64,000 nucleotides of DNA from an uncultured Acidobacteriota bacterium. Its GTDB lineage: Bacteria > Acidobacteriota > Vicinamibacteria > Fen-336. This document shows positions 33,774 through 44,375 of this stretch, in pieces. The DNA lies in assembly GCA_963720545.1 (NCBI GenBank), contig OY970399.1:2304001-2368000 (forward strand), read 5' to 3'. Position 1 is the first letter of the stretch, and every line of letters starts with the position of its first letter. The notes beneath the pieces are model-generated. The model was not told the origin of the DNA. It ran no database searches and saw only the letters and a program-made list of their open reading frames with translations. The translations under genes were made by a program, and so were the position numbers.

Positions 33774-35161
33774 TGTCCACCGCGCTCTTCCTCGCCGCGT
33801 TGCTGCTGGCCCAGGCCCCGGCACCGGCACCGACGCCCTCGCCGGACGTGAGGGCGCTGTTTCCAGAGCCCGAGGCGCCCCCCGAACCGCCGCCGCCCGC
33901 CCCGAGTGAAAACGGACCGCCAGGCATCGCCATCGGCGCGGGCGCGCTGCAGCCGTCGCTGGTCCTGTCGCTGATCCGCGGCGACATCTTTCCGAGCGCC
34001 ACCGCCGAACGCCCGTTCAAGGTGCGCGACACCTACTTCCAGATCGAGCCGCGCCTCAACTTCGTTTATCCGGTGGGCGCGGGCGGCGAGTTTCGCGCCG
34101 GTTACGAACCGGCGTTTCGCCGCGGCAGCGCCCTTCAAGAGGTGACAGCGTCGAGCCACCGGCTCGGCGCCGGGATCGAACTGCCGCTGGGAACGAGCTT
34201 CCTGCTGCGCGCCGCCGATCAGTGGTCGAAGGGCATCCTCGACGTCACCCAGGTGGATCCCGGCCAGGAATATTTCTTCCGCCTGCAGCCCTTCAGGCAC
34301 AACGTCTTCGACGTGAATGGCACGCTCGCGGGCGGCGACACCAGCATCGACGGCGGCGCCACCCTCAGCCGCGTCACGATCGAGCCCGGCTCGGGCTTCT
34401 TCTCGAACCGCTCGCAACAGTATTACGGCGGCATCAGCCGCAGCCTCGCCGCCACGCTGCGGCTGCGCCTCGGTTACACCCGCGAGCGCATCCCGCGCCC
34501 CATCGACCGGCCCGAGGTCGAGAGCCGCGCCAACATCTACACGCTCAGCCTCGACGGCACCCTGGCACCGCTGCTTGACGGGCAGATCTCGGCCGGCTAT
34601 CGCGACCAGAAGACGCCGAACGCCGGCGCCGGCGGCCGGAGCTTCAAGGGTCTGGTGGTCGCCGGGCGCCTCGAGAAGGAGTTCACGCGTTCGACCCGCC
34701 TCGCGCTCTGGGGCAGCCGCGACACCCGCGTGGACCTGCTGCGCCGCAACGGGCTCTACGCGACGACCGGCGGCCAGCCCGAAATCGCACTGCCCACCAC
34801 CTCCGCCTTCGAGGAGAACGCCTTCTACGTCGCCAAGGCATTCAACTCCGAGCTGCAGTTCGAGCTGCCTCTGCAACTCACGGCGCGCGCCGCGGCGCAG
34901 TGGCAGAACAACGAATACCGCACCGTCGCCTCGGCCATCGGCAAGCGGCGCAGCGACGATTTTTTCGGCTGGGCGCTGGGCTTCGGGCGTTCCCTCACAC
35001 GCCACGCCTGGGTGAGAATCGACTATCGTCGTGACCGCCGGGACTCCAACATCGACGTCTTCGACGTCAGGACCGAGGCGCTGCTGGTGCAGCTCGGCTT
35101 TGGCTTCCAGGGATCGCGCGGCCGGCCGAAATTCAGCGGCGGCAGCGAGAGCCAGGACTAG
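33773..35161 (+). CDS. Outer-membrane beta-barrel of polysaccharide export (BBP2-like)
   Basis: Signal peptide, Pro-rich linker, amphipathic beta-strands; sits directly before wza-wzc. Confidence 0.65.
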   Translation: MSTALFLAALLLAQAPAPAPTPSPDVRALFPEPEAPPEPPPPAPSENGPPGIAIGAGALQPSLVLSLIRGDIFPSATAERPFKVRDTYFQIEPRLNFVYPVGAGGEFRAGYEPAFRRGSALQEVTASSHRLGAGIELPLGTSFLLRAADQWSKGILDVTQVDPGQEYFFRLQPFRHNVFDVNGTLAGGDTSIDGGATLSRVTIEPGSGFFSNRSQQYYGGISRSLAATLRLRLGYTRERIPRPIDRPEVESRANIYTLSLDGTLAPLLDGQISAGYRDQKTPNAGAGGRSFKGLVVAGRLEKEFTRSTRLALWGSRDTRVDLLRRNGLYATTGGQPEIALPTTSAFEENAFYVAKAFNSELQFELPLQLTARAAAQWQNNEYRTVASAIGKRRSDDFFGWALGFGRSLTRHAWVRIDYRRDRRDSNIDVFDVRTEALLVQLGFGFQGSRGRPKFSGGSESQD

Positions 35162-35165
35162 GCGG

Positions 35166-36029
35166 ATGAAACTACTGTTGCGCAGCGTCAGGTTCGCATC
35201 GCTCGCCGCCGGCCTGCTCCTCGGCCTGGTCGCGGAAAGCCGCGCCCAGGAAACCGCGGCCGCCGCGCCGGACGAGTATCGTCTCGGCGCCGGCGATGTC
35301 CTCGACGTCATCGTGATCGGCAACCAGGACGCCTCACGCGTCGCACCCATCGATCCCGGCGGCACCATCACGCTGCCGCTCGTCGGCGAGGTGCCGGTGG
35401 CCGGTCGCACCCTCGCGGAGGTGCGCCAGGAGGTGACGGCACTGCTCGCGAAGGACTACCTCGTGAACCCGCAGGTTGACGTGCGCATCAAGGAGTACGG
35501 CAGCCGTTTCGCGCTCGTCGTCGGCGAGATGCGCCAGCCGGGCCGGCGCCCACTGCGCGCCAACAGCCGGCTCATCGACGTGCTCATGGAGGCCGGCGGC
35601 TTCACGCCGCAGGCCTCGGGCGATGTGCTCATCACGCGCGTCGATGGCACGTTCCCGGACGGCAGCAAGAGCCTGCGCGTGCGCATCACCGCGCAGAACG
35701 CGACCGCAGCCGACCACGCCGGCGTCGAAACCACGCTGCACGCGGGCGACATCATCGTGGCGGCGCCCAAGGCCTACGTCATCGTCGAAGGCGAAGTCGC
35801 GCGTCCGGGGCGCTTCGTGATCGACGGCAACCTCACGATCACCGGCGGCATCTCCATCGCCGGCGGCCTCACCCGCTACGGCAGCAGCACCGTGAGGATC
35901 CGCCGCACCGATGCCGCGGGCAAGACCGCGATCACGGAGGTCGATCTGAAGGCGATTCGCAAGGGCAAGGCCGAAGACGTGCTGCTGCAGGCGGACGACG
36001 TCGTCAGCGTCAGCCGCCGCCGGTTCTAG
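35166..36029 (+). CDS. wza: Polysaccharide export protein (Poly_export + SLBB)
   Basis: YRLGAGDVL, GTITLPLVG, GEV.RPG, L..DDVV. Confidence 0.88.
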   Translation: MKLLLRSVRFASLAAGLLLGLVAESRAQETAAAAPDEYRLGAGDVLDVIVIGNQDASRVAPIDPGGTITLPLVGEVPVAGRTLAEVRQEVTALLAKDYLVNPQVDVRIKEYGSRFALVVGEMRQPGRRPLRANSRLIDVLMEAGGFTPQASGDVLITRVDGTFPDGSKSLRVRITAQNATAADHAGVETTLHAGDIIVAAPKAYVIVEGEVARPGRFVIDGNLTITGGISIAGGLTRYGSSTVRIRRTDAAGKTAITEVDLKAIRKGKAEDVLLQADDVVSVSRRRF

Positions 36030-36061: not shown

Positions 36062-38185
36062 GTGCCCGCACCGATCACGCTCGCATCGCCGCCAGGTCCG
36101 GCGCTGCCGGGTGCGCACGCCGAAGAGGCGCGCTTCGACCTGCGCTACTACGCGCACCTCCTGTGGCGCGCGCGGCTGCTGCTGGTGGCGGCCGCCCTCC
36201 TGGGCCTCGGGCTGATGACGCTCTACGGCTACCTGCAGACCCCGGTGTACCGCGCCAACGCCATGCTGCAGATCGAGCCGCCGACGCCGATGCTCATGAA
36301 CGTCACCGATTCGCTTCTCGGCAGCGGCTCGTTCTGGCAGAACGCCGACTTCTACAACACGCAGTTCAAGATCCTCAAGTCGCGGGGCCTGGGCGACAAG
36401 GTGGTGGCGGCGCTGAAGCTCGACGCGCAGCCCGAGTTCAAGGGCGCGCGCGATCCGGGCTCCATCTTCATGGGGCACGTCGAGATCGAGCCCATCCCGG
36501 AGAGCCGGCTCGTCAACGTCAGCATCCGCCACACCGACCCGCAAGCCGCGGCCGACTGGGCGAACGCGCTCGCCGACCTGTTCATCCGCGAATCGGTCGC
36601 CAACCGCATGCAGCAGGCGACGCAGGTGATGGACTGGCTCACCGAGCAGGTGAAGCAGACGCAGGCGTCGATGCAGACGGCGCAGACCGAGCTCATCCAG
36701 GGCCTGCAGCGCCGGGACCTCGCGACGACGCCGGGCGCGCAGTCGACGATGGACGCGTCGATCGAAAGGCTGCAGACCGAGTACCTGGAGGCCAAGACGC
36801 GGCGCATCACCATCGAGGCGGCGCTGACGCAGATCCGCGACCTGCGCAGCCGCGACCTCGGACTGCAGTCGGTGCCGCAGGTGGCGGCCGACCAGCAGAC
36901 CGCGGCGCTCGACGCCGAGCTCGCGGGTCTCGAGTCGCAGCTCTCCATCCTGCGCGGGCGCTTTCGCGAGGGCCACCCCGAAGTGCTGAAGGTGACGGCG
37001 CAGATCGCGCAGACCAGGCGCGCCGTCGCCGACCGGGCCAACGCGGTGGCGGCCGGGCTGCAGGCGGAATACACGCAGCTGCAGAAGCGCGAGTCCGAGC
37101 TGCAGGGCGCGATCGGCGGACAGCGTGCCGCCGCCGTCAACCAGTCGCGCGCCACCGCCGAGATGGAGACGCTGCGCAAGCGCACCGACTCCACCAAGAA
37201 CCTCTACGACGTGCTGCTGCAGAAGCTGAACGAGACCAACATCGCCGCCTCGATGCGCAACAGCAACGCCTCGGTGGTGGAGCGCGCCACCGTGCCGGTC
37301 GCGCCGGTGTGGCCCGACAAGCGCCGCATCGCGCTCTTCGGCCTCGGTGCGGGCCTGCTGGCTGGCGTCGGCCTGGTGCTGTTGCGCGATCACCTCGACA
37401 ACACCTTCAAGGATCCGGAGGAAGTCGAGCGCTACCTGCACACCGAACTGCTCGCGGCGATTCCCAGGGCCGGTGATCCGCGCCTGCTGACCGAGGCTTA
37501 CCAGAACCTGCGCACCGCGCTGCTGTTCGCGCGCCGCTCCGAAGAAGGCCAGATCGTGCTGATCACCGGCACGGCGCCGCAGGAAGGCAAGACCACGACG
37601 CTCGTGAACCTCGGCAAGCTGCTGGCGGCGGCGGGAGAGTCGACGATCCTCGTCGACTGCGACCTGCGGCGCGCGCAGGTGCACGATCGCCTGGGGCTGC
37701 CGCGCGAGCCAGGCGTCACCAACTACTTCACCCAGCACCTCGGCATCGACACCCTGGTGCAGTCGGGCGGCGCGCCCGCGCTCGCGGCGCTCACCGCCGG
37801 ACCGCTGCCGCCCAATCCGCCGGCGCTCCTCGCCCGCGGCCAGCTCGACAACCTGTTTGCCGAGCTGCGGCAGCGCTACCGGTGGATCCTCGTCGACTCA
37901 CCGCCGCTCGCCTCCGTGACCGACGCGCTGCTCCTGGCGCGCCGTTCGGACATGGTGGTCGTGATCGTCAAGCACAACGGCATCGACAAACGGCTGGTGC
38001 GCCGCGCCATTGGCGCGCTACGGCGGGTCGGCGCGCCGCTACTCGGCGTGGTACTGAACATGTTGGAACTGCACGTCGGCAACTACTACTACTACTATTA
38101 CAACCGGCAGGAGAGTCCGCCGGGCGCTGTACCGCAGGTCATCAAGCCCCACTTGCGGCGCGTCGCCGCAGGAGACGACCGCTAG
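36062..38185 (+). CDS. wzc: Polysaccharide co-polymerase / BY-kinase
   Basis: Two TM segments flanking a coiled coil; PQEGKTT, DCDLRR, VDSPP; C-terminal YYYYYY cluster. Confidence 0.92.
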   Translation: MPAPITLASPPGPALPGAHAEEARFDLRYYAHLLWRARLLLVAAALLGLGLMTLYGYLQTPVYRANAMLQIEPPTPMLMNVTDSLLGSGSFWQNADFYNTQFKILKSRGLGDKVVAALKLDAQPEFKGARDPGSIFMGHVEIEPIPESRLVNVSIRHTDPQAAADWANALADLFIRESVANRMQQATQVMDWLTEQVKQTQASMQTAQTELIQGLQRRDLATTPGAQSTMDASIERLQTEYLEAKTRRITIEAALTQIRDLRSRDLGLQSVPQVAADQQTAALDAELAGLESQLSILRGRFREGHPEVLKVTAQIAQTRRAVADRANAVAAGLQAEYTQLQKRESELQGAIGGQRAAAVNQSRATAEMETLRKRTDSTKNLYDVLLQKLNETNIAASMRNSNASVVERATVPVAPVWPDKRRIALFGLGAGLLAGVGLVLLRDHLDNTFKDPEEVERYLHTELLAAIPRAGDPRLLTEAYQNLRTALLFARRSEEGQIVLITGTAPQEGKTTTLVNLGKLLAAAGESTILVDCDLRRAQVHDRLGLPREPGVTNYFTQHLGIDTLVQSGGAPALAALTAGPLPPNPPALLARGQLDNLFAELRQRYRWILVDSPPLASVTDALLLARRSDMVVVIVKHNGIDKRLVRRAIGALRRVGAPLLGVVLNMLELHVGNYYYYYYNRQESPPGAVPQVIKPHLRRVAAGDDR

Positions 38186-38206: not shown

Positions 38207-39565
38207 CTACTCCTGGCTCGACGGTGCGCTGGCCTGGACCGGGCTCGGGACTTCCGGGATCGGCACGAAGGGGGAGACGCCAGGAACCGTCGGCGGCTCG
38301 CCGGCAGTCGGAGCCGGCTGCCCGGGAACTGCGACGTGAGTGACCTGCTGTCCCGACGGCGGGTTGGGCTGGGGCGGTGCCACGTCCGCGCAGCTTGCGC
38401 CCATGCTGGCGCGGTTTTCCTTGCGCAGGAAATCAACGGCGTCGACCATCTTGCTGCGCGTGACCGGACCGTCCGGGCCGAGTTCGAGGCCGAGGCCCTT
38501 GAGGGCCGCGACGTACGCGTCCGCGCCGGCCTGCTTGCGCTGCACACGCACAGCTTCGACGGTGGAGTTGGGGCCGAGGCGCACCGCGACCGCGTGTGGG
38601 CCGGCAGTGAAGTCGGATGACAGCACCGGCGTCCATTCGCCCGCAGCGGTGCCGCGCCGCGAGCCGGTGCAGACCACTTGCTTCTTGCAGCCGTCTGCCG
38701 TCCACTGCTGCCCGCCGTTCAGGTTGCCCTTGACGGAGACGGTGTAGAGGCCGGCTTCGGGAACCTGGAACGTGAGCAGGCCTTCGGCGCCTTGCGGGCC
38801 GGAGTCGAAGTTGTCCGTAACGGCCGCCTGCCGCAGCGCCGGCAGGTAGCGTGCGATGGCGCTGCCCGGCAGGTCGAGCGGCACGCCGGCGGGGGCGAGT
38901 TCCGATTCCTTGTCGAGCGCGCGCAGCGTCGTCACCGCCACGTCGTCGGTGGTCGCGACCTTCGCGGTCTGCCAGCCGCCGAGCGGCTCGATGTTGGTGA
39001 CGCACGGCGGCACCACTTCGAAGCGATCGAGCGAAGTGCCGGGCGGCAGCAGCACCGAGGCGAGGTAAGCGCCGCCTGCGAGCTGCACGCGGCCGCCGTC
39101 GACCCAGGCCGCCTGCGCCGCGGGGCGCAGCGTGAACGTAGCGAGCGGCTTGTCGCCCTTGCGATCCGTCACTTCGACGGACGCCGGCTTGTCGGCCGGG
39201 CCGCTGAGGTGTGCGCGAATCTGGTATTCGCCGGGGCGTGCGACGGTGAGCGGATAGCTCGCCTGCCCGACGCCCGCTTCGGCGGCGACCGCGTTCGGCG
39301 GGTCGCCGAGCACGCGCACCGCATCGGCTTTCTCGAACTCGCTGCCCTTGAAAGCCAGGCTCGAGTGCCACGCGAGAGCGCCGAAGGCAACCGACGCCGT
39401 GTCCATTCCCGGGCTTTCGAGGTCGAGGCCACGCAGCATCATGCGCGCCCATTCCGGGTGGCTGACGGCGGACACCCGAGGGTCTCCGTAGAGCGGATAA
39501 AGCAGAGCGAAGCCGACGGTAACCGCAGCCGCGACCGCAATGCCGAGGGAGCTTTTCGACTGCAT
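38207..39565 (-). CDS. Exported/membrane-anchored hypothetical protein with beta-sandwich (CBM-like) segments and a Pro-rich tail
   Basis: Hydrophobic N-terminus; YPLTVARPGEYQI and FQVPEAGLYTVSV repeats; codon usage matches host genes. Confidence 0.7.
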   Translation of the reverse strand: MQSKSSLGIAVAAAVTVGFALLYPLYGDPRVSAVSHPEWARMMLRGLDLESPGMDTASVAFGALAWHSSLAFKGSEFEKADAVRVLGDPPNAVAAEAGVGQASYPLTVARPGEYQIRAHLSGPADKPASVEVTDRKGDKPLATFTLRPAAQAAWVDGGRVQLAGGAYLASVLLPPGTSLDRFEVVPPCVTNIEPLGGWQTAKVATTDDVAVTTLRALDKESELAPAGVPLDLPGSAIARYLPALRQAAVTDNFDSGPQGAEGLLTFQVPEAGLYTVSVKGNLNGGQQWTADGCKKQVVCTGSRRGTAAGEWTPVLSSDFTAGPHAVAVRLGPNSTVEAVRVQRKQAGADAYVAALKGLGLELGPDGPVTRSKMVDAVDFLRKENRASMGASCADVAPPQPNPPSGQQVTHVAVPGQPAPTAGEPPTVPGVSPFVPIPEVPSPVQASAPSSQE

Positions 39566-39590: not shown

Positions 39591-39639
39591 TTGACAACTT
39601 GTCCACGGCTAACTTAGCCTCCGAGGCCAGGCATGTCAA
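39591..39639. promoter_or_regulatory. Overlapping divergent sigma70-like promoters
   Basis: Plus strand TTGACA (39591) - 18 - TAGCCT (39615). Minus strand TTGACA (39639-39634) - 17 - TAAGTT (39616-39611). Confidence 0.55.
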
Positions 39640-40691
39640 AGTGTATCCAACACACTCTCATAGACATAGCCCGGGTTCGTCACCTCAAGCGGGTGCCTTC
39701 CGGCATGCCCGGGAACGACCTTTGCCGCGCCGCCGAACGGCAGGGGGTCCTGGCCCTCTTCGGCCCCTCGAAACCACCCGTCTTCGCCGCCGCGATGGTG
39801 CGCGAGGCGGTGCGCACCACCCGGCTCCTCGACCTCGCGCTGCGCCTCCAGGCGCACCTCGAAACACTCGGTGTGCGCTCGCTCACTTTGAAGGGCGCAG
39901 CACTCCACGGCACGGCTTACCCGGATGTCGAGAGCCGTCCGATGGTCGACGCCGACCTGTTGGTGCTCGACGACATCGCGAGCGCCGAGGCGGCGGCGCG
40001 TTCGCTCGGCCTCGTGTTCGTCGAGCGCGCCGATCACGCCGTCGCGTATCGCGAACCCCGAAGTGGCGCGATGGTCGAGCTGCACTGGAGCGTCACCTCG
40101 GCGCCCGGGTTCTTTCCGGTCGACAAGGAATCGCTTTGGCGCGGCCGCCGCCGGCTCGCCACGGGCCTCTTGGCGCCGTCGGCCGCCGACACGCTGGTGC
40201 TGCTCGCGCTGCACGCGGCGTTTCAGCACGGCCTGGTGCTGCGGCTGGTGCAACACGGCGACTTCCACGCCTTGTTGGCGAGTGAGGGGCCCGATCCGCG
40301 GCGCATCGTCGCGCGCGCCGCCGAGTGGCGTGCGGGCCTCGCCGTGGTTGCTGCACTGCAGATCGCCGGCCACTTGCTCGGCACGCCGGACCGAGCGGCA
40401 GCGGTGCTCGCCGAGCTGCGCGATTTCCGGCTGCGCGGGCCGCTCGCGCGCCACGTCGCGAGCGCGGCGGAAACGCCCGAACGCTTTCTCGAGCCGGCCG
40501 AGCCGCGCCTCGCGATGGTGCGCCTCTCACTGGCGCGCGGGCACCGACTCGACCTCGTGCGCCGCACGCTCTGGCCGCTCTCGCCCGACGACGGGAGCGC
40601 GCGCGGCTTCACTCGCGCCGCTTTGGGCGTGCGCCGCGGCGCGCGCCTCGTCGGCCGCCATTTCGCCGGCTGGGCCGGCAGCGCGTCGTGA
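39633..40691 (+). CDS. Nucleotidyltransferase (NTP_transf_5-like)
   Basis: LKGAAL...YP....RPMVDADLLV and VELHW motifs. The real start may be ATG 39705. Confidence 0.82.
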   Translation: MSKCIQHTLIDIARVRHLKRVPSGMPGNDLCRAAERQGVLALFGPSKPPVFAAAMVREAVRTTRLLDLALRLQAHLETLGVRSLTLKGAALHGTAYPDVESRPMVDADLLVLDDIASAEAAARSLGLVFVERADHAVAYREPRSGAMVELHWSVTSAPGFFPVDKESLWRGRRRLATGLLAPSAADTLVLLALHAAFQHGLVLRLVQHGDFHALLASEGPDPRRIVARAAEWRAGLAVVAALQIAGHLLGTPDRAAAVLAELRDFRLRGPLARHVASAAETPERFLEPAEPRLAMVRLSLARGHRLDLVRRTLWPLSPDDGSARGFTRAALGVRRGARLVGRHFAGWAGSAS

Positions 40692-41119
40692 TCGATCACG
40701 ACGGCGCCGCGAGCGCAGCCGTCGCGCGCGAGGCCGTCGCGTTGAACCTCGCGGCCGCGGCCTCGGTGTGCATCCGCGTCAGCGGCCGCTGCATGGAACC
40801 GGCGCTGCTCGCGGGCGAACTGGTGGAGCTGCGGCGCACGCGGCCGCGGGTGGGCGACGTGGTGCTGGCGCAGCTGCCGCAGGGCCTGCGGCTGCATCGC
40901 CTGCTGCTGAAGCTGCCGCTCGGCGCTGGCTGGCGCACCAAGGGCGACCGCTGCGACCCGTGGGACGCGAAGATCTCCGGCCGCGAGGTGATCGCCACGG
41001 TGGTGCGCTCGTGCGCCACCGGCCGTACGCCCCATAGCCGCGGATTGGCTCTGCGTTCGCTCGCGTCTGCGCTACGCTGGCGCCTGCGCGTGCAGCGCAT
41101 CAAGCCGGAGGGACAATGA
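40688..41119 (+). CDS. S24/S26-fold peptidase with Cys in place of the catalytic Ser
   Basis: GTG overlaps the NTase stop; RVSGRCMEP.L..G, GDVV, LHRL, TKGD motifs. Confidence 0.75.
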   Translation: MIDHDGAASAAVAREAVALNLAAAASVCIRVSGRCMEPALLAGELVELRRTRPRVGDVVLAQLPQGLRLHRLLLKLPLGAGWRTKGDRCDPWDAKISGREVIATVVRSCATGRTPHSRGLALRSLASALRWRLRVQRIKPEGQ

Positions 41120-41433
41120 CGCACAACCCGCTGCGCACCATCTACGCGCGCTCCGACCGCATCGTCGGCCGGCGTATCGGCCCGGAGTTCGTGCTGGTGC
41201 CGCTCGTCGGCCACGGCGCCGAGCTCGAGGCGATCTACAACCTCGGCGGCGCGGGCGTCTTCATCTGGGAGCGGATCGACGGCCGCACCGACGGCGACAC
41301 CATCGTCGACGAGATGATCGCGGCGTTCGACGTGCAGCGCCCGGAAGCGGCGGAAGACTACGCGACCTTTACCCGCCACCTCGTCGAGATCGGCGCCCTG
41401 AAGGTGGTTTCGGCGCCGATCCGCCGGAAATGA
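41116..41433 (+). CDS. PqqD-family RiPP recognition element
   Basis: 105 aa; RRIG.E.VLVP, IYNL...G.FIWERIDG, F...L.EIG. Confidence 0.88.
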   Translation: MTHNPLRTIYARSDRIVGRRIGPEFVLVPLVGHGAELEAIYNLGGAGVFIWERIDGRTDGDTIVDEMIAAFDVQRPEAAEDYATFTRHLVEIGALKVVSAPIRRK

Positions 41434-42301
41434 TCGCGCCCACGGCTGCCACCGCCGAGGCGTCCTTGCGAAAGGCGAGCGAGTAGCTCGGCACCGCGCG
41501 CGCGAAGCTCTCTGCGGTGCGCAGCACCGCGAAGAAGGCAGCCGGCTCCCACGGCGGCAGGAACGAAAAGGCCAGCAGCTGGCTGGCGAAGCCCTGCGGC
41601 TCGATGCGCGTGAGCGCGGTGGTGCGCGACTGCTTCAGCACGAACAGTGCCCGCAGCCGCAACGCGCGCGGCGCGGCATGGCGCGCGGTGCCGTGCCACG
41701 GCGTGCCGTACGCCCACCACTGACCGCGCCGCCGGCGGATCACGAGACGATCGTCGCTCAACACGCTGGCGAGCGGAGCATGCCGGCGAAACAGGCGGCT
41801 GATCGTGGACTTGCCCGCCCCCGAATGGCCGGTGAACGCCACCAGGCCGCGGCCGGTGTCGACGCCGCTCGCATGCAGCACCAAGCCGCCGTCGTAGGCG
41901 AAGTGGTGCTGCAGCAGCAGCTCGTCGAGCGGGAACGAAAGCGCGAAGCCGCGGTGAGCGAGGTACTCGCCCGGCGCCAGGTAGAGCGTGCCACGGCGGC
42001 GGCGACGGTCGATGAGGAGGCCGCGTGCCGGCGGGCCCTTGCCCATGGGGCGGCGAAAGACGTAAAGGATCTTCGCGCCGACTTCGTACGCGCGCCAGGT
42101 TCCGCCCGATTCGAAGACCGGTGCTGCGTCTGGCACCGGCACCGGCGCCAGCACCACCTCGAGGTCGATGTCGGCGCCGCTTTTTGCGCCGAACGCTTCG
42201 TAGCCGCGTGGCAGGCGCAGCGCCGGTGCCCTGGTGTCGTAGCGGAGCCTGATGGTCCTGCCGCCGATGCGCAGCCGCAGGCTGTGGGCGCGCCGCCGCA
42301 G
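41369..42301 (-). CDS. HPr-kinase-like P-loop protein (ScmC/HprK-related)
   Basis: VLHASGV, FTGHSGAGKST, LSDDRLVI, YGTPWHG. No ATG is present; the start is CTG 42301 or a GTG inside the rSAM 3' end. Confidence 0.78.
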   Translation of the reverse strand: MRRRAHSLRLRIGGRTIRLRYDTRAPALRLPRGYEAFGAKSGADIDLEVVLAPVPVPDAAPVFESGGTWRAYEVGAKILYVFRRPMGKGPPARGLLIDRRRRRGTLYLAPGEYLAHRGFALSFPLDELLLQHHFAYDGGLVLHASGVDTGRGLVAFTGHSGAGKSTISRLFRRHAPLASVLSDDRLVIRRRRGQWWAYGTPWHGTARHAAPRALRLRALFVLKQSRTTALTRIEPQGFASQLLAFSFLPPWEPAAFFAVLRTAESFARAVPSYSLAFRKDASAVAAVGAIISGGSAPKPPSGRRSRRGGG

Positions 42302-42306
42302 GACGG

Positions 42307-43587
42307 CTAGCTGCGGGCCGCGGCCGCTGCGGCGCGGACCGGGCGCTCGATCTGGATCAGCGCTTGCGCCTGCGGCTGCGCGGGTTCCGAGTGGCTGCAC
42401 GAACCGCAGCCGCCGAGGTGAATCTCGGCATCGGGTCGCGCGGCGAGCACGCCCGCTCCGACGCAGCACGTCGCGTCGCGGCGATGGCCGCTGTCCTTGC
42501 CGAGCGCCGCGAACGCGCGCAGGTGCGTGACCTCGCAGAAGTTGCGCAGCAGCGCCGTCGGGTCGCCGGTGGCAAGCTCGGCCGAACCCGGGCAGTTGCC
42601 GCAGCCGCTGCGCAGCGTGCACGACTGGCATACCGAGTTGTCCTGCCACTGGCGCGAGCGAGCCTGCGGCAGGAACTCGTTCCAGCCGGTGTCGAAGCTG
42701 CCTTGCTTCAGGTCGTAGGAAGCCTTGCGCGCCAGCTGGCACAACTGCAGCTGGCCATAGGGATCGACGGTGAACGACATCTGCCCGGCGCCGCACTCGA
42801 ACACCTGCTCGGCCACGGCGATGCGCACCTCGCCGCCCGCGGCCGCCGCCGCCGGCGCAAAGGCGTTCCAGATCTTCGCGCGGGTCAACTCGTCCGCGAG
42901 GTCCACCGCGAGAATGTCCTCGGCGTTCACCTGCAGCTCGCCGTTGCGGTTGGCGCCGCAGTCGACGCGCGCGTTCAGCAGGCTGTCGTGGCGGAAGCTG
43001 GTGCCGAGGTTCGCGGCGAAAGCGCGCATCGCCTCGATCTCGTGGACGTTCCAGGAGAGCACCATGGTCTTGAGCTTGAGGTTCAGGCCGCGGCGATAGA
43101 GGCGCTCGATGCCGGCTATGCACTTCTCGAACGAGCCCGGCACGCGGGTGACGCGGTCGTAGGTCGCCTTCGTCATCCCGTAGAGCGTGACCTCGATGGC
43201 GGCGGGACGATGCGCGCTGAGGAAGTCGGCGATGTCCTCGGTGACCATGGTCGCGTTGGTGAAGATGCCGACGCGCAGGCCGCGGCCCAGCGCGTGCAGG
43301 TAGATCTGCCTGAAGTCCCTGCGGATCAGGACCTCGCCGCCGGTGAGCAGCAGCTCGAAGGCGCCGGCGTCCGCCACCTCGTCGATCAGCGTCTTCACCC
43401 GTTCCGTCGACAGCTCGCGGCGCATCTCTTCCGCGTCGCCCGCCGGCTTGTTGACGTAGCAGTGGACGCAGTTGAGGTTGCAGCGGAAGGAGGTCTCGAT
43501 GGTTCCGTCCCACGGCAGACGCCGGCCGCTGACGTCGAGGCTGTGGGCGAAATCGGCGATCGAGATTTCGTCGAGTACGGTCGTCAT
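42307..43587 (-). CDS. Radical SAM/SPASM peptide maturase
   Basis: CNLNCVHC, TGGE; SPASM motifs CGAG...DPYG...C and CQSC.....CGNCP...C. Confidence 0.92.
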   Translation of the reverse strand: MTTVLDEISIADFAHSLDVSGRRLPWDGTIETSFRCNLNCVHCYVNKPAGDAEEMRRELSTERVKTLIDEVADAGAFELLLTGGEVLIRRDFRQIYLHALGRGLRVGIFTNATMVTEDIADFLSAHRPAAIEVTLYGMTKATYDRVTRVPGSFEKCIAGIERLYRRGLNLKLKTMVLSWNVHEIEAMRAFAANLGTSFRHDSLLNARVDCGANRNGELQVNAEDILAVDLADELTRAKIWNAFAPAAAAAGGEVRIAVAEQVFECGAGQMSFTVDPYGQLQLCQLARKASYDLKQGSFDTGWNEFLPQARSRQWQDNSVCQSCTLRSGCGNCPGSAELATGDPTALLRNFCEVTHLRAFAALGKDSGHRRDATCCVGAGVLAARPDAEIHLGGCGSCSHSEPAQPQAQALIQIERPVRAAAAAARS

Positions 43588-43612
43588 CCGGGCTTCCCGA
43601 GCCCCGCGCGGG

Positions 43613-43774
43613 CTAGCTGCCCTGAGCCGAGTTGATGAGGGTGCCGCCGCGGTTGCAGACGTTCGCGGACACCATGTTTCGCTTGCAGCCCGTCACGGCC
43701 AGCTCATCGGCAACAAGGTTCACTTTGCGAATCCGGGGTGTCTCGTAAGTGGCCTTCGCCTGCTTCGTCTTCAT
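43613..43774 (-). CDS. RiPP precursor peptide, 53 aa (not in ORF track)
   Basis: Hand translation: MKTKQAKATYETPRIRKVNLVADELAVTGCKRNMVSANVCNRGGTLINSAQGS*. SD AGAGGAG lies 3 nt before the ATG; the stop is 25 nt upstream of the rSAM start. Confidence 0.85.
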   Translation of the reverse strand: MKTKQAKATYETPRIRKVNLVADELAVTGCKRNMVSANVCNRGGTLINSAQGS

Positions 43775-43804
43775 TGACTCCTCTTCCGGCTCGACGGCTC
43801 GGGT

Positions 43805-43872
43805 AGCCTAAGCCCTACCTCGCGCGGGTGTAAAGCCGCGCGTTGACACTGTGCTCTGCCTCACGCTACCCT
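43805..43872. promoter_or_regulatory. Back-to-back promoters for the precursor (minus) and fur (plus)
   Basis: Minus strand TTTACA (43834-29) - 18 - TAGGCT (43810-05). Plus strand TTGACA (43843) - 18 - TACCCT (43867). Inverted repeat CGCGCGG-N8-CCGCGCG at 43821-43842. Confidence 0.55.
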
Positions 43873-43886
43873 CGCCATTCGAAAAA

Positions 43887-44375
43887 GTGAGCGCCCGGGG
43901 AAAGAACGAAACGGCCCGCGAAGAGCGCGAAGTCCTCACCGCGCACCTCGCGGCCAACGGCCTGAAACGCAGCGCCCAGAGAGACGCCGTGGTCGAGGTG
44001 TTCTTCCGCTCCGACAGCCACCTCTCGGTGGACGACCTGCTGAAGCTGGTGAAGCGCAAGAACCCGGCGGTGGGACGCACCACCGTCTATCGCACCTTGA
44101 AGCTGCTCACCGCCGCCGGCCTCGCGACCGAGCTGCAGCTGCGCGGCGAGACCCGCTTCGAGCGCGAATACAAGCGCCACCATCACGACCACTTCATCTG
44201 CAACGGCTGCGGCGCGATCTTCGAGTTCTCGAACGACGAGATCGAGCGCGCTCAGGACGATGCCGCGCAGGAGATCGGCTTCACCATCCAGGGCCACCGC
44301 CACCAGATCTTCGGCTTGTGCGCCGCGTGCACGGCCAAGGCGGCGGCGCCGCACGCCGCATCCCGGCCCGCCTAA
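43887..44375 (+). CDS. fur: Fur-family metalloregulator
   Basis: TVYRTLKLL, HHHDHFICNGCG, C-terminal CAAC. Confidence 0.88.
   Translation: MSARGKNETAREEREVLTAHLAANGLKRSAQRDAVVEVFFRSDSHLSVDDLLKLVKRKNPAVGRTTVYRTLKLLTAAGLATELQLRGETRFEREYKRHHHDHFICNGCGAIFEFSNDEIERAQDDAAQEIGFTIQGHRHQIFGLCAACTAKAAAPHAASRPA

Follow-up and report, generated by a model that had tools for sequence, protein, structure and literature searches.

A predicted radical SAM peptide cassette with a near-invariant C-terminal serine and a putative HprK/PEPCK-fold kinase in an uncultured Acidobacteriota bacterium

A stretch of 64,000 nucleotides from an uncultured Acidobacteriota bacterium (Vicinamibacteria; Fen-336), taken from contig OY970399.1 of assembly GCA_963720545.1 (positions 2,304,001 to 2,368,000 of the forward strand) and referred to here as the window, carries a six-gene cassette made up of a short precursor, a radical S-adenosylmethionine (SAM)/SPASM enzyme, a kinase, a PqqD recognition protein, a Sec11/SipW-type peptidase and a nucleotidyltransferase (NTase). 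On balance, we infer from its gene content that the locus encodes a peptide that is made on the ribosome and modified after translation (RiPP), and with similarly guarded confidence we take phosphorylation of the C-terminal serine of the precursor (Ser53) to be the best-supported part of its predicted mechanism, because the kinase is always present, the last residue is the only conserved hydroxyl and a C-terminal Ser is the classical site of this enzyme class. In a set of 71 homologous precursors spread over several phyla, 68 have Ser as their last residue, two Thr and one Arg, and since these relatives share ancestry the counts do not represent independent events. The genes of the cassette, in window coordinates, are as follows:

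43613..43774, minus strand: precursor gene, 53 aa (open reading frame (ORF) list; ribosome-binding site; homologues adjoining the radical SAM or kinase gene in related loci)
43616..43618, minus strand: codon AGC of Ser53, the proposed phospho-acceptor (sequence; last residues of homologues)
42307..43587, minus strand: radical SAM/SPASM maturase, 426 aa, cluster motif CNLNCVHC (PF04055, E = 2.2e-21)
41369..42301, minus strand: predicted HprK/phosphoenolpyruvate carboxykinase (PEPCK)-fold P-loop kinase, about 310 aa, start uncertain (CTG 42301 or GTG 42400) (alignment A1, AF2 model, structural matches)
41116..41433, plus strand: PqqD-family RiPP recognition element (RRE), 105 aa (PF05402, E = 7.7e-13)
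40688..41119, plus strand: Sec11/SipW-type (archaeal/endoplasmic reticulum (ER)-type) signal-peptidase-I-like predicted leader peptidase, 143 aa (profile of 36 homologues against SEC11C/SEC11A)
39633..40691, plus strand: PF14907 nucleotidyltransferase, 352 aa (PF14907, E = 7.9e-34)

The precursor ORF reads MKTKQAKATYETPRIRKVNLVADELAVTGCKRNMVSANVCNRGGTLINSAQGS-stop, with the ribosome-binding site AAGAGGAG 5 nt upstream of its ATG, and its C-terminus is the ...AQGS-stop described in an earlier first-pass annotation of this DNA. Its leader carries YETPRI, an instance of the YxxPxI motif, and its core contains an invariant Cys30-Lys31 and Cys40 before ending in Gly52-Ser53. An alignment of 42 precursors (A2) has invariant columns at P13, E24, C30, K31 and C40 and near-invariant ones at Y10, G52 and S53; the last residue is the sole hydroxyl column conserved in these 42 sequences, no other Ser or Thr column being kept. 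The first-pass annotation had proposed conservation of the terminal Ser in homologous precursors as a check of its reading, and on this point it is strongly upheld. Among 51 distinct precursors from genome loci, 49 end in Ser and two in Thr, with a penultimate Gly in 46, and among 20 distinct precursors from metagenome loci 19 end in Ser and one in Arg. All six Ser codons are used at the terminus (AGC 23, AGT 8, TCC 14, TCG 11, TCT 6, TCA 6), and the use of both codon families (AGY 31, TCN 37) indicates that selection acts on the amino acid and not on the DNA. A terminal Ser at this frequency greatly exceeds chance, the background among ORFs of 40-120 aa in the same loci being 13% for a Ser end and 1.9% for a GS end. 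The precursor relatives were located via gene context, a word-index search with the precursor returning its own cluster and one 93%-identical fragment only, and loss of the precursor reading frame was not seen in close relatives. Tandem pairs of precursor genes occur in two loci, L067:9255-9625 (minus) and L035:6577-6951 (plus), and every copy ends in Ser.

A terminal Ser is also found in a more distant sister cassette with the gene order kinase-PqqD-peptidase-radical SAM. Its six distinct candidate precursors, which were chosen by eye from leader motif and position and not from the last residue, have Lys-rich YxxP leaders and cores unrelated to those of the window family, and all of them end in Ser (RWS, LNS, KMS, KTS, ISS, AAS).

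The kinase gene lies on the same strand as the precursor gene and two genes down from it, and carries the P-loop GHSGAGKST and the motif LSDDR; the co-oriented, downstream P-loop kinase-like gene of the first-pass annotation is thus confirmed, although of the interval given there (41369-43618) the kinase takes up 41369 to about 42301 or 42400 only, and most of it is the radical SAM/SPASM gene at 42307-43587, which had gone unmentioned. In alignment A1 the invariant positions are H138, G153-S-G-A-G-K159-x-T161, L176-x-D178-D179-R180 and G-T-P-W 194-197, with H138, K159, D178-D179 and GTPW invariant in 15/15 sequences. An AF2 model of the protein (pLDDT 89.7, pTM 0.85) matched PEP carboxykinases first in Foldseek, and VIA-align placed it closest to PEPCK over the whole protein (Z 14.3, with 253 residues aligned at a root-mean-square deviation (rmsd) of 5.9, and Z 12.0), followed by four HprK/P structures over residues 133-295 (Z 11.7, with 125 aligned at rmsd 3.0, then 11.4, 11.3 and 11.1), while other P-loop kinases reached Z <= 5.8. 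The model clearly points to an HprK/PEPCK-like P-loop fold. The DD pair corresponds, by inference and not by alignment, to the positions changed in the PsmK D158A/D159A mutant, which is inactive (PMC6993621).

The conserved N-terminus of the kinase (HSLRLRIGG) has no ATG, GTG or TTG nearby, and the candidate starts, in the region 42286-42400 (minus strand), are CTG 42301, 5 nt past the radical SAM stop codon, and GTG 42400, which would overlap the radical SAM gene by 94 nt; the short form is favoured because relatives run to about 290-300 aa. The family is a large one, for which clustering at 50% identity leaves 1,854 representatives (E <= 1e-30), and its nearest ESM Atlas clusters are mostly from Acidobacteriota, with ScmC (PF27840, a new Pfam family) assigned to 17-51% of their members. 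In L004 / L051:8695-10239 (plus) the kinase frame is split over two frames, by a frameshift or an assembly error.

Searching with alignment A1 recovered 28 loci from metagenome-assembled genomes (MAGs) and 61 metagenome loci, the MAG loci being labelled Acidobacteriota, Omnitrophota, Chloroflexia, Nitrospirae, Planctomycetes, Myxococcales, Binatia and Dongiaceae. In an iterative hidden Markov model map of the window and 63 loci, PqqD, radical SAM, precursor, kinase and peptidase occur together almost everywhere, and in three loci without an adjacent kinase the kinase is found on another contig of the same genome. Among 61 related genomes, 36 of which contain radical SAM orthologues at E <= 1e-30, kinase and radical SAM enzyme are found together in 34, the kinase only in three (77, 78 and 90% complete), the radical SAM enzyme only in two (weak, sister-type matches) and neither in 22. 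The first-pass annotation had cast the kinase as a tailoring enzyme; its presence is borne out but an optional role is not, as the kinase is a core enzyme of this cassette family and is always present.

In the pathway proposed here, the PqqD protein would bind the YxxPxI leader of the 53-aa precursor and present the precursor to the enzymes, as its family and the motif suggest. The radical SAM/SPASM enzyme would modify the Cys-containing core, probably by forming cross-links of the thioether type at Cys30 and Cys40, both of them invariant. The HprK/PEPCK-fold kinase would use ATP to place a phosphate on the hydroxyl of the C-terminal Ser53, for which conservation and the precedents of paeninodin and pseudomycoidin both argue, and the PF14907 NTase, in the window organism and about two thirds of its relatives, might then elaborate the Ser53 phosphate in a PsmN-like manner, which is the weakest step. 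The Sec11-like peptidase, with a Cys nucleophile here, would cut off the leader near the invariant Cys-Lys. The precedent for the kinase step comes from lasso peptides: in the pseudomycoidin precursor the C-terminal Ser is the residue to which PsmK adds a phosphate (Zyubko et al., 2019, PMC6993621), the same site is described for PadeK, ThcoK and SyanK, and the lasso phosphorylations reported before BsfK were all on a C-terminal Ser (PMC10368454).

Among the accompanying proteins, the PqqD protein matches lasso_PqqD_Bac (1.3e-7) and ScmD (5.5e-7), both under the cut-off. A profile built from 36 peptidase homologues (A3) finds the human proteins SEC11C and SEC11A (E = 1e-10), in an alignment running through SMEP...GD...HRV...TKGD...D, and its matches to bacterial SPase I and LexA are far weaker, so that the peptidase is of the archaeal/ER type of signal peptidase I. 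Pfam assigns Peptidase_S24 to 25 of the 36 homologues and Peptidase_S26 to seven, and the window's own copy has neither match. At the nucleophile position Cys replaces Ser throughout the window's clade (SGRCMEP), and Ser is kept in more distant clades. In four Acidobacteriota loci (L022:7854-14843, L025, L027 and L028, all plus) the peptidase domain forms the N-terminus of an ORF of > 2,330 aa, which in L022 is packed with DUF11 and CARDB repeats, and in a Chloroflexia locus (L026:7726-10725, plus) it is followed by Propeptide_C25 and Peptidase_C25; these giant ORFs are either true fusions or adjacent genes sharing one frame. The radical SAM gene, located between the precursor and kinase genes, begins 25 bases downstream of the precursor ORF, and its product has 53-58% identity to orthologues in related genomes; its best NCBIfam matches (NirJ2, mycofactocin, AhbD, StsB, ScmE) are all far under their cut-offs. 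A second cluster, L081 (G037:C2:3445500-3465499), combines a kinase of the window family with three radical SAM/SPASM genes and a longer candidate precursor with four Cys that ends in AAS.

Several observations weigh against phosphorylation of Ser53 or against its elaboration by the NTase, and they are set out here together with the alternatives on which they bear. The first concerns the NTase. The gene at 39633-40691 is an NTase, as first annotated, scoring 117.8 bits against PF14907 (NTP_transf_5; gathering score 31.2), a family that also includes LppN and PbaN. Residues G88, R102, D106, D108, G126, H151 and H194, which include the catalytic G...DxD, are invariant in 20/20 sequences, and the AF2 model (pLDDT 91.6) matches MenT1 (Z 14.3), TglT (12.9) and ANT(2'') 4xje (12.4, with 160 residues aligned at rmsd 3.2). 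PsmN, itself an uncharacterised NTase, shows Phyre2 similarity to 4xje and 5cfs and is required for hexose additions of +162 Da that are seen only on phosphorylated pseudomycoidin (PMC6993621), and both proteins thus resemble ANT(2'') 4xje. Action of the window NTase on phospho-Ser53 is a reasonable extrapolation from this one precedent, and we put it forward tentatively.

A serious contender, if short of probable, is that the NTase does not act on phospho-Ser at all, and instead modifies another group of the peptide (by nucleotidylation or phospho-transfer), acts on a polysaccharide intermediate, or needs a partner encoded elsewhere. Deletion of LppN had no detectable effect in the linear polyphosphorylated peptide (LPP) system, in the account of its authors, who suspect a missing partner or substrate (PMC13381572), and the folds nearest to that of the window enzyme belong to nucleotidyltransferases that modify tRNA or antibiotics and to FKRP, and not to glycosyltransferases. 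The gene is also missing from many cassettes, being found in 24/34 genomes with both kinase and radical SAM enzyme, by a single-sequence query that misses some copies, and in 27/64 sources (the window and 63 loci as fetched), and copies of PF14907 unlinked to the cassette exist in related genomes (e.g. G027, G036). The NTase is accessory, less tightly bound to the cassette than the kinase and dispensable in many relatives. Against this alternative stand the dependence of the PsmN-associated hexoses on phosphorylation and the ties of the gene to the cassette: NTase, peptidase and PqqD genes are translationally coupled in the window, with the peptidase GTG 40688 overlapping the NTase stop codon as GTGA and the PqqD ATG overlapping the stop codon of the peptidase gene, and in an Omnitrophota locus (L023:7828-9435, plus) peptidase and NTase are fused (Peptidase_S24 7-105, NTP_transf_5 188-434, by Pfam). 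This coupling and this fusion suggest that the NTase belongs to the pathway where it is present. A second Omnitrophota locus (L024:3892-5973, plus) has the same fusion, seen in the jackhmmer map and the peptidase alignment only.

The main rival to Ser53 as acceptor, and one we consider unlikely, is that the kinase targets another residue, for instance a Ser/Thr close to where leader and core meet, as in the case of BsfK and LppK, or a variable Ser/Thr of the core; the terminal Ser would then have been kept for a different role, such as being recognised by the radical SAM enzyme, or serving export or the target of the product. A C-terminal site is not a rule for this kinase class. BsfK, with < 35% identity to HPr kinases and < 21% to other lasso kinases, modifies Ser3 of the core and not the C-terminus, and is accelerated by an RRE (PMC10368454), while LppK polyphosphorylates core Ser3 and, in its published description, does not accept Thr (PMC13381572); in both systems phosphorylation of Ser3 promotes leader cleavage (PMC10368454, PMC13381572). 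The cores of the window family contain between one and 10 Ser/Thr residues besides the last. A terminus other than Ser or Thr occurs in a single, divergent precursor (L116:2391-2573, plus), which ends in GPGR despite the presence of a kinase, and its core starts with CHTS instead of CK, placing Thr-Ser directly behind the first Cys, so that this locus may use a core-proximal phospho-site. Precursors with a radical SAM enzyme and no kinase, which would serve as a natural control, are found in none of the 61 related genomes, and the terminal Ser could therefore owe its conservation to any of these other roles. On the other side, the 42 aligned precursors keep no Ser/Thr column but the last, the invariant Cys of the core is followed by Lys and then by variable residues, and the sister cassette keeps the terminal Ser on unrelated cores. 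The two Thr-ending precursors fit the tolerance of BsfK, which accepts Thr at its site (PMC10368454).

It is less probable still that the HprK/PEPCK-fold protein is not a peptide kinase, and is rather a small-molecule or sugar kinase linked to polysaccharide export or a non-catalytic partner of the radical SAM enzyme. Its top whole-length structural matches are PEP carboxykinases and not HprK, and its sequence has no significant match to an HPr-kinase family: there was no Pfam Hpr_kinase match at E <= 0.01 (weak AAA_33 and AAA_16 matches only), TIGR04355 (HprK_rel_B) gave 23.1 bits against a cut-off of 200, and a profile of the family against PDB sequences returned P-loop matches only, with HprK/P at a non-significant E = 0.04. 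Exopolysaccharide export genes, moreover, adjoin the cassette in the window and in 8/63 other loci. However, almost every locus has the gene immediately beside the precursor or radical SAM gene, its co-occurrence with them holds genome by genome, its catalytic His, P-loop Lys and DD are invariant, and an RRE, an SpI-like peptidase and a PF14907 NTase accompany proven peptide kinases in the LPP and lasso clusters as described. That the 53-codon ORF is a chance one with a meaningless terminal Ser is hardly conceivable, for although high-GC DNA gives many spurious ORFs and the precursor has no match in Pfam or NCBIfam, dozens of loci, in several phyla, have a homologue with the invariant P, E, CK and C in that position, the spacing from YxxP to CK is 20 residues in 48/51, the ribosome-binding site is strong and a contig from an RNA library, a weak hint, covers the 3' end of the ORF into the radical SAM gene. 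Taken together, the first-pass reading of Ser53 phosphorylation followed by modification by the NTase is partly supported, the former step, as the preferred reading, faring better than the latter.

The closest described counterparts are the phosphorylated lasso peptides (paeninodin, the substrates of ThcoK and SyanK, and pseudomycoidin), with which the cassette shares an HprK-type kinase with a catalytic DD, a discrete PqqD-type RRE paired with a YxxP leader motif, and a precursor ending in Ser, the acceptor in the lasso systems; with pseudomycoidin it also shares an uncharacterised NTase, PsmN there elaborating the phosphate with hexose. It differs in its radical SAM/SPASM enzyme and Cys-containing core, in its Sec11/SipW-like leader peptidase and in a kinase too divergent for HPr-kinase sequence models. 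Neither the lasso macrolactam cyclase (Asn-synthetase-like) nor the B2 cysteine protease is among the six cassette genes or the scanned neighbours, the rest of the genome not having been searched. The non-lasso scaffold proposed in the first-pass annotation therefore stands as far as the cassette genes go, but it is not the first of its kind, since a non-lasso pairing of kinase and NTase was published in 2026 as LPP.

LPP clusters (LppA/K/B/S/D/N), defined in Bacillota (Popov et al., Nat Commun 2026, PMC13381572), have in common with the window an SpI-like (archaeal-type) leader peptidase, a discrete RRE, a kinase resembling HprK, a PF14907 NTase, a YxxP leader motif and a position beside polysaccharide loci. 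Of the LPP leader consensus YxxPxVLxHQxIxFETxxS, the window precursor matches the YxxPx[IVL] part only. LPP are reported as restricted to Bacillota, whereas the window cassette lies outside that phylum, and they are described as linear products made without a radical SAM enzyme, unlike the window with its radical SAM/SPASM gene. The LPP acceptor is core Ser3 and the C-termini vary, whereas in the window family the terminal Ser is near-invariant and Lys follows the invariant Cys; further differences are the two to three invariant Cys of the core and the Cys nucleophile of the peptidase in the window's clade. An MsbA-like exporter, part of LPP, is absent from the scanned flanking genes (Poly_export, Wzz/GNVR kinase, 452-aa protein and Fur), a scan that did not take in every ORF of the window. 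Radical SAM has 0 mentions in the LPP main text, but Radical_SAM, DUF11 and Peptidase_C25 are among the 834 domains of the neighbour-domain matrix in its supplement (PMC13381572), so that a few cassettes like that of the window may be present in the LPP raw data.

Of the curated family sets, SynChlorMet alone has matches to three window genes (kinase, PqqD and radical SAM), all of them far under their cut-offs: the kinase to ScmC (TIGR04249; 8.5e-5, 22 bits vs 125), the PqqD protein to ScmD (TIGR04248; 29.7 bits vs 100) and the radical SAM enzyme to ScmE (TIGR04250; 5.5e-25, 88 bits vs 400) and ScmF (TIGR04251; 7.4e-21, 74.9 bits vs 400). The window cassette has one radical SAM enzyme and not two, and a full-text literature search for 'SynChlorMet' found no paper with the term. 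Sactipeptide and ranthipeptide pathways likewise bring together a radical SAM/SPASM enzyme, an RRE and a precursor whose short core has conserved Cys, and the window enzyme has weak matches, far under cut-offs, to the StsB, AlbA, PapB and CefB maturases; these pathways are not known to contain a kinase, an NTase or a signal-peptidase-like protease. A literature search for the combination of radical SAM enzyme and kinase returned lasso, LPP and cyanobactin papers only, none describing it. Judged by its genes, the cassette combines the phosphorylation toolkit of LPP and lasso clusters with a radical SAM/SPASM enzyme and a core that contains Cys, and like LPP it lies beside polysaccharide-export genes. 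The features flanking it in the window are:

43775..43850, no strand: intergenic region between the precursor gene and the divergent Fur-family gene (sequence)
43851-44372, divergent from the precursor gene: Fur-family gene (PF01475, E = 8.2e-33)
38207-39565, minus strand: 452-aa protein without a Pfam match, hydrophobic segment at its N-terminus, adjoining the NTase gene
36062-38182, plus strand: Wzz/GNVR tyrosine-kinase-type gene (Pfam scan)
35160-36026, plus strand: Poly_export/SLBB polysaccharide export gene (Pfam scan)

The three coupled plus-strand genes converge on the precursor-radical SAM-kinase operon, and the convergent kinase and PqqD genes share 65 nt at their 3' ends (41369-41433). 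Close relatives carry all six cassette genes on one strand, and the layout in the window therefore looks like an inversion of the NTase-peptidase-PqqD block. The region 43775..43850 presumably holds the promoter of the operon; a consensus scan of 41000-44000 found no sigma-70-like site, an outcome that is uninformative for this organism. A 714-aa ORF (41369..43513) was rejected as an artefact, a high-GC read-through across the radical SAM gene in another frame. Contigs from two metatranscriptome runs, all short, map to the radical SAM gene, and one of 199 nt covers 43445-43641, from the 3' end of the precursor gene into the radical SAM gene; they give a weak hint of expression, as DNA can be present in such libraries. 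The 452-aa protein is kept beside the cassette in three close relatives (43-45% identity). A Wzz homologue lies within 7 kb of the cassette in 8/63 other loci, distant phyla included, and the loci in which polysaccharide export recurs are L023, L035, L038, L041/L083, L049, L051 and L053; this setting is comparable to the capsule loci at which LPP clusters are reported.

Few ribosomal peptides among the natural products carry phosphate, and up to 2026 this modification was linked to lasso peptides. In this locus a radical SAM enzyme is combined with the same toolkit, namely a kinase, a recognition protein, a signal-peptidase-like protease and a nucleotidyltransferase, and the kinase family extends over soil phyla whose natural products have been little explored. 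A bolder reading, which we regard as something of a long shot, is that the cassette represents an undescribed, phylum-spanning RiPP class, a radical SAM cross-linked peptide with an obligatory C-terminal phosphoserine that serves the NTase as a handle for attaching a sugar, nucleotide or polysaccharide by a phosphodiester bond, giving a peptide-glycan conjugate or surface-assembly factor and not a free antibiotic; if so, the product would be tied to the exopolysaccharide export machinery and the giant surface proteins that recur beside the cassette. The near-invariant terminal Ser makes phosphorylation of Ser53 a sharp and cheaply testable hypothesis. If it is true, C-terminal phosphorylation would extend to a second peptide scaffold, and the cassette would give ready experimental access to the chemistry of PF14907 enzymes and to the recurring link between these peptides and polysaccharide export.

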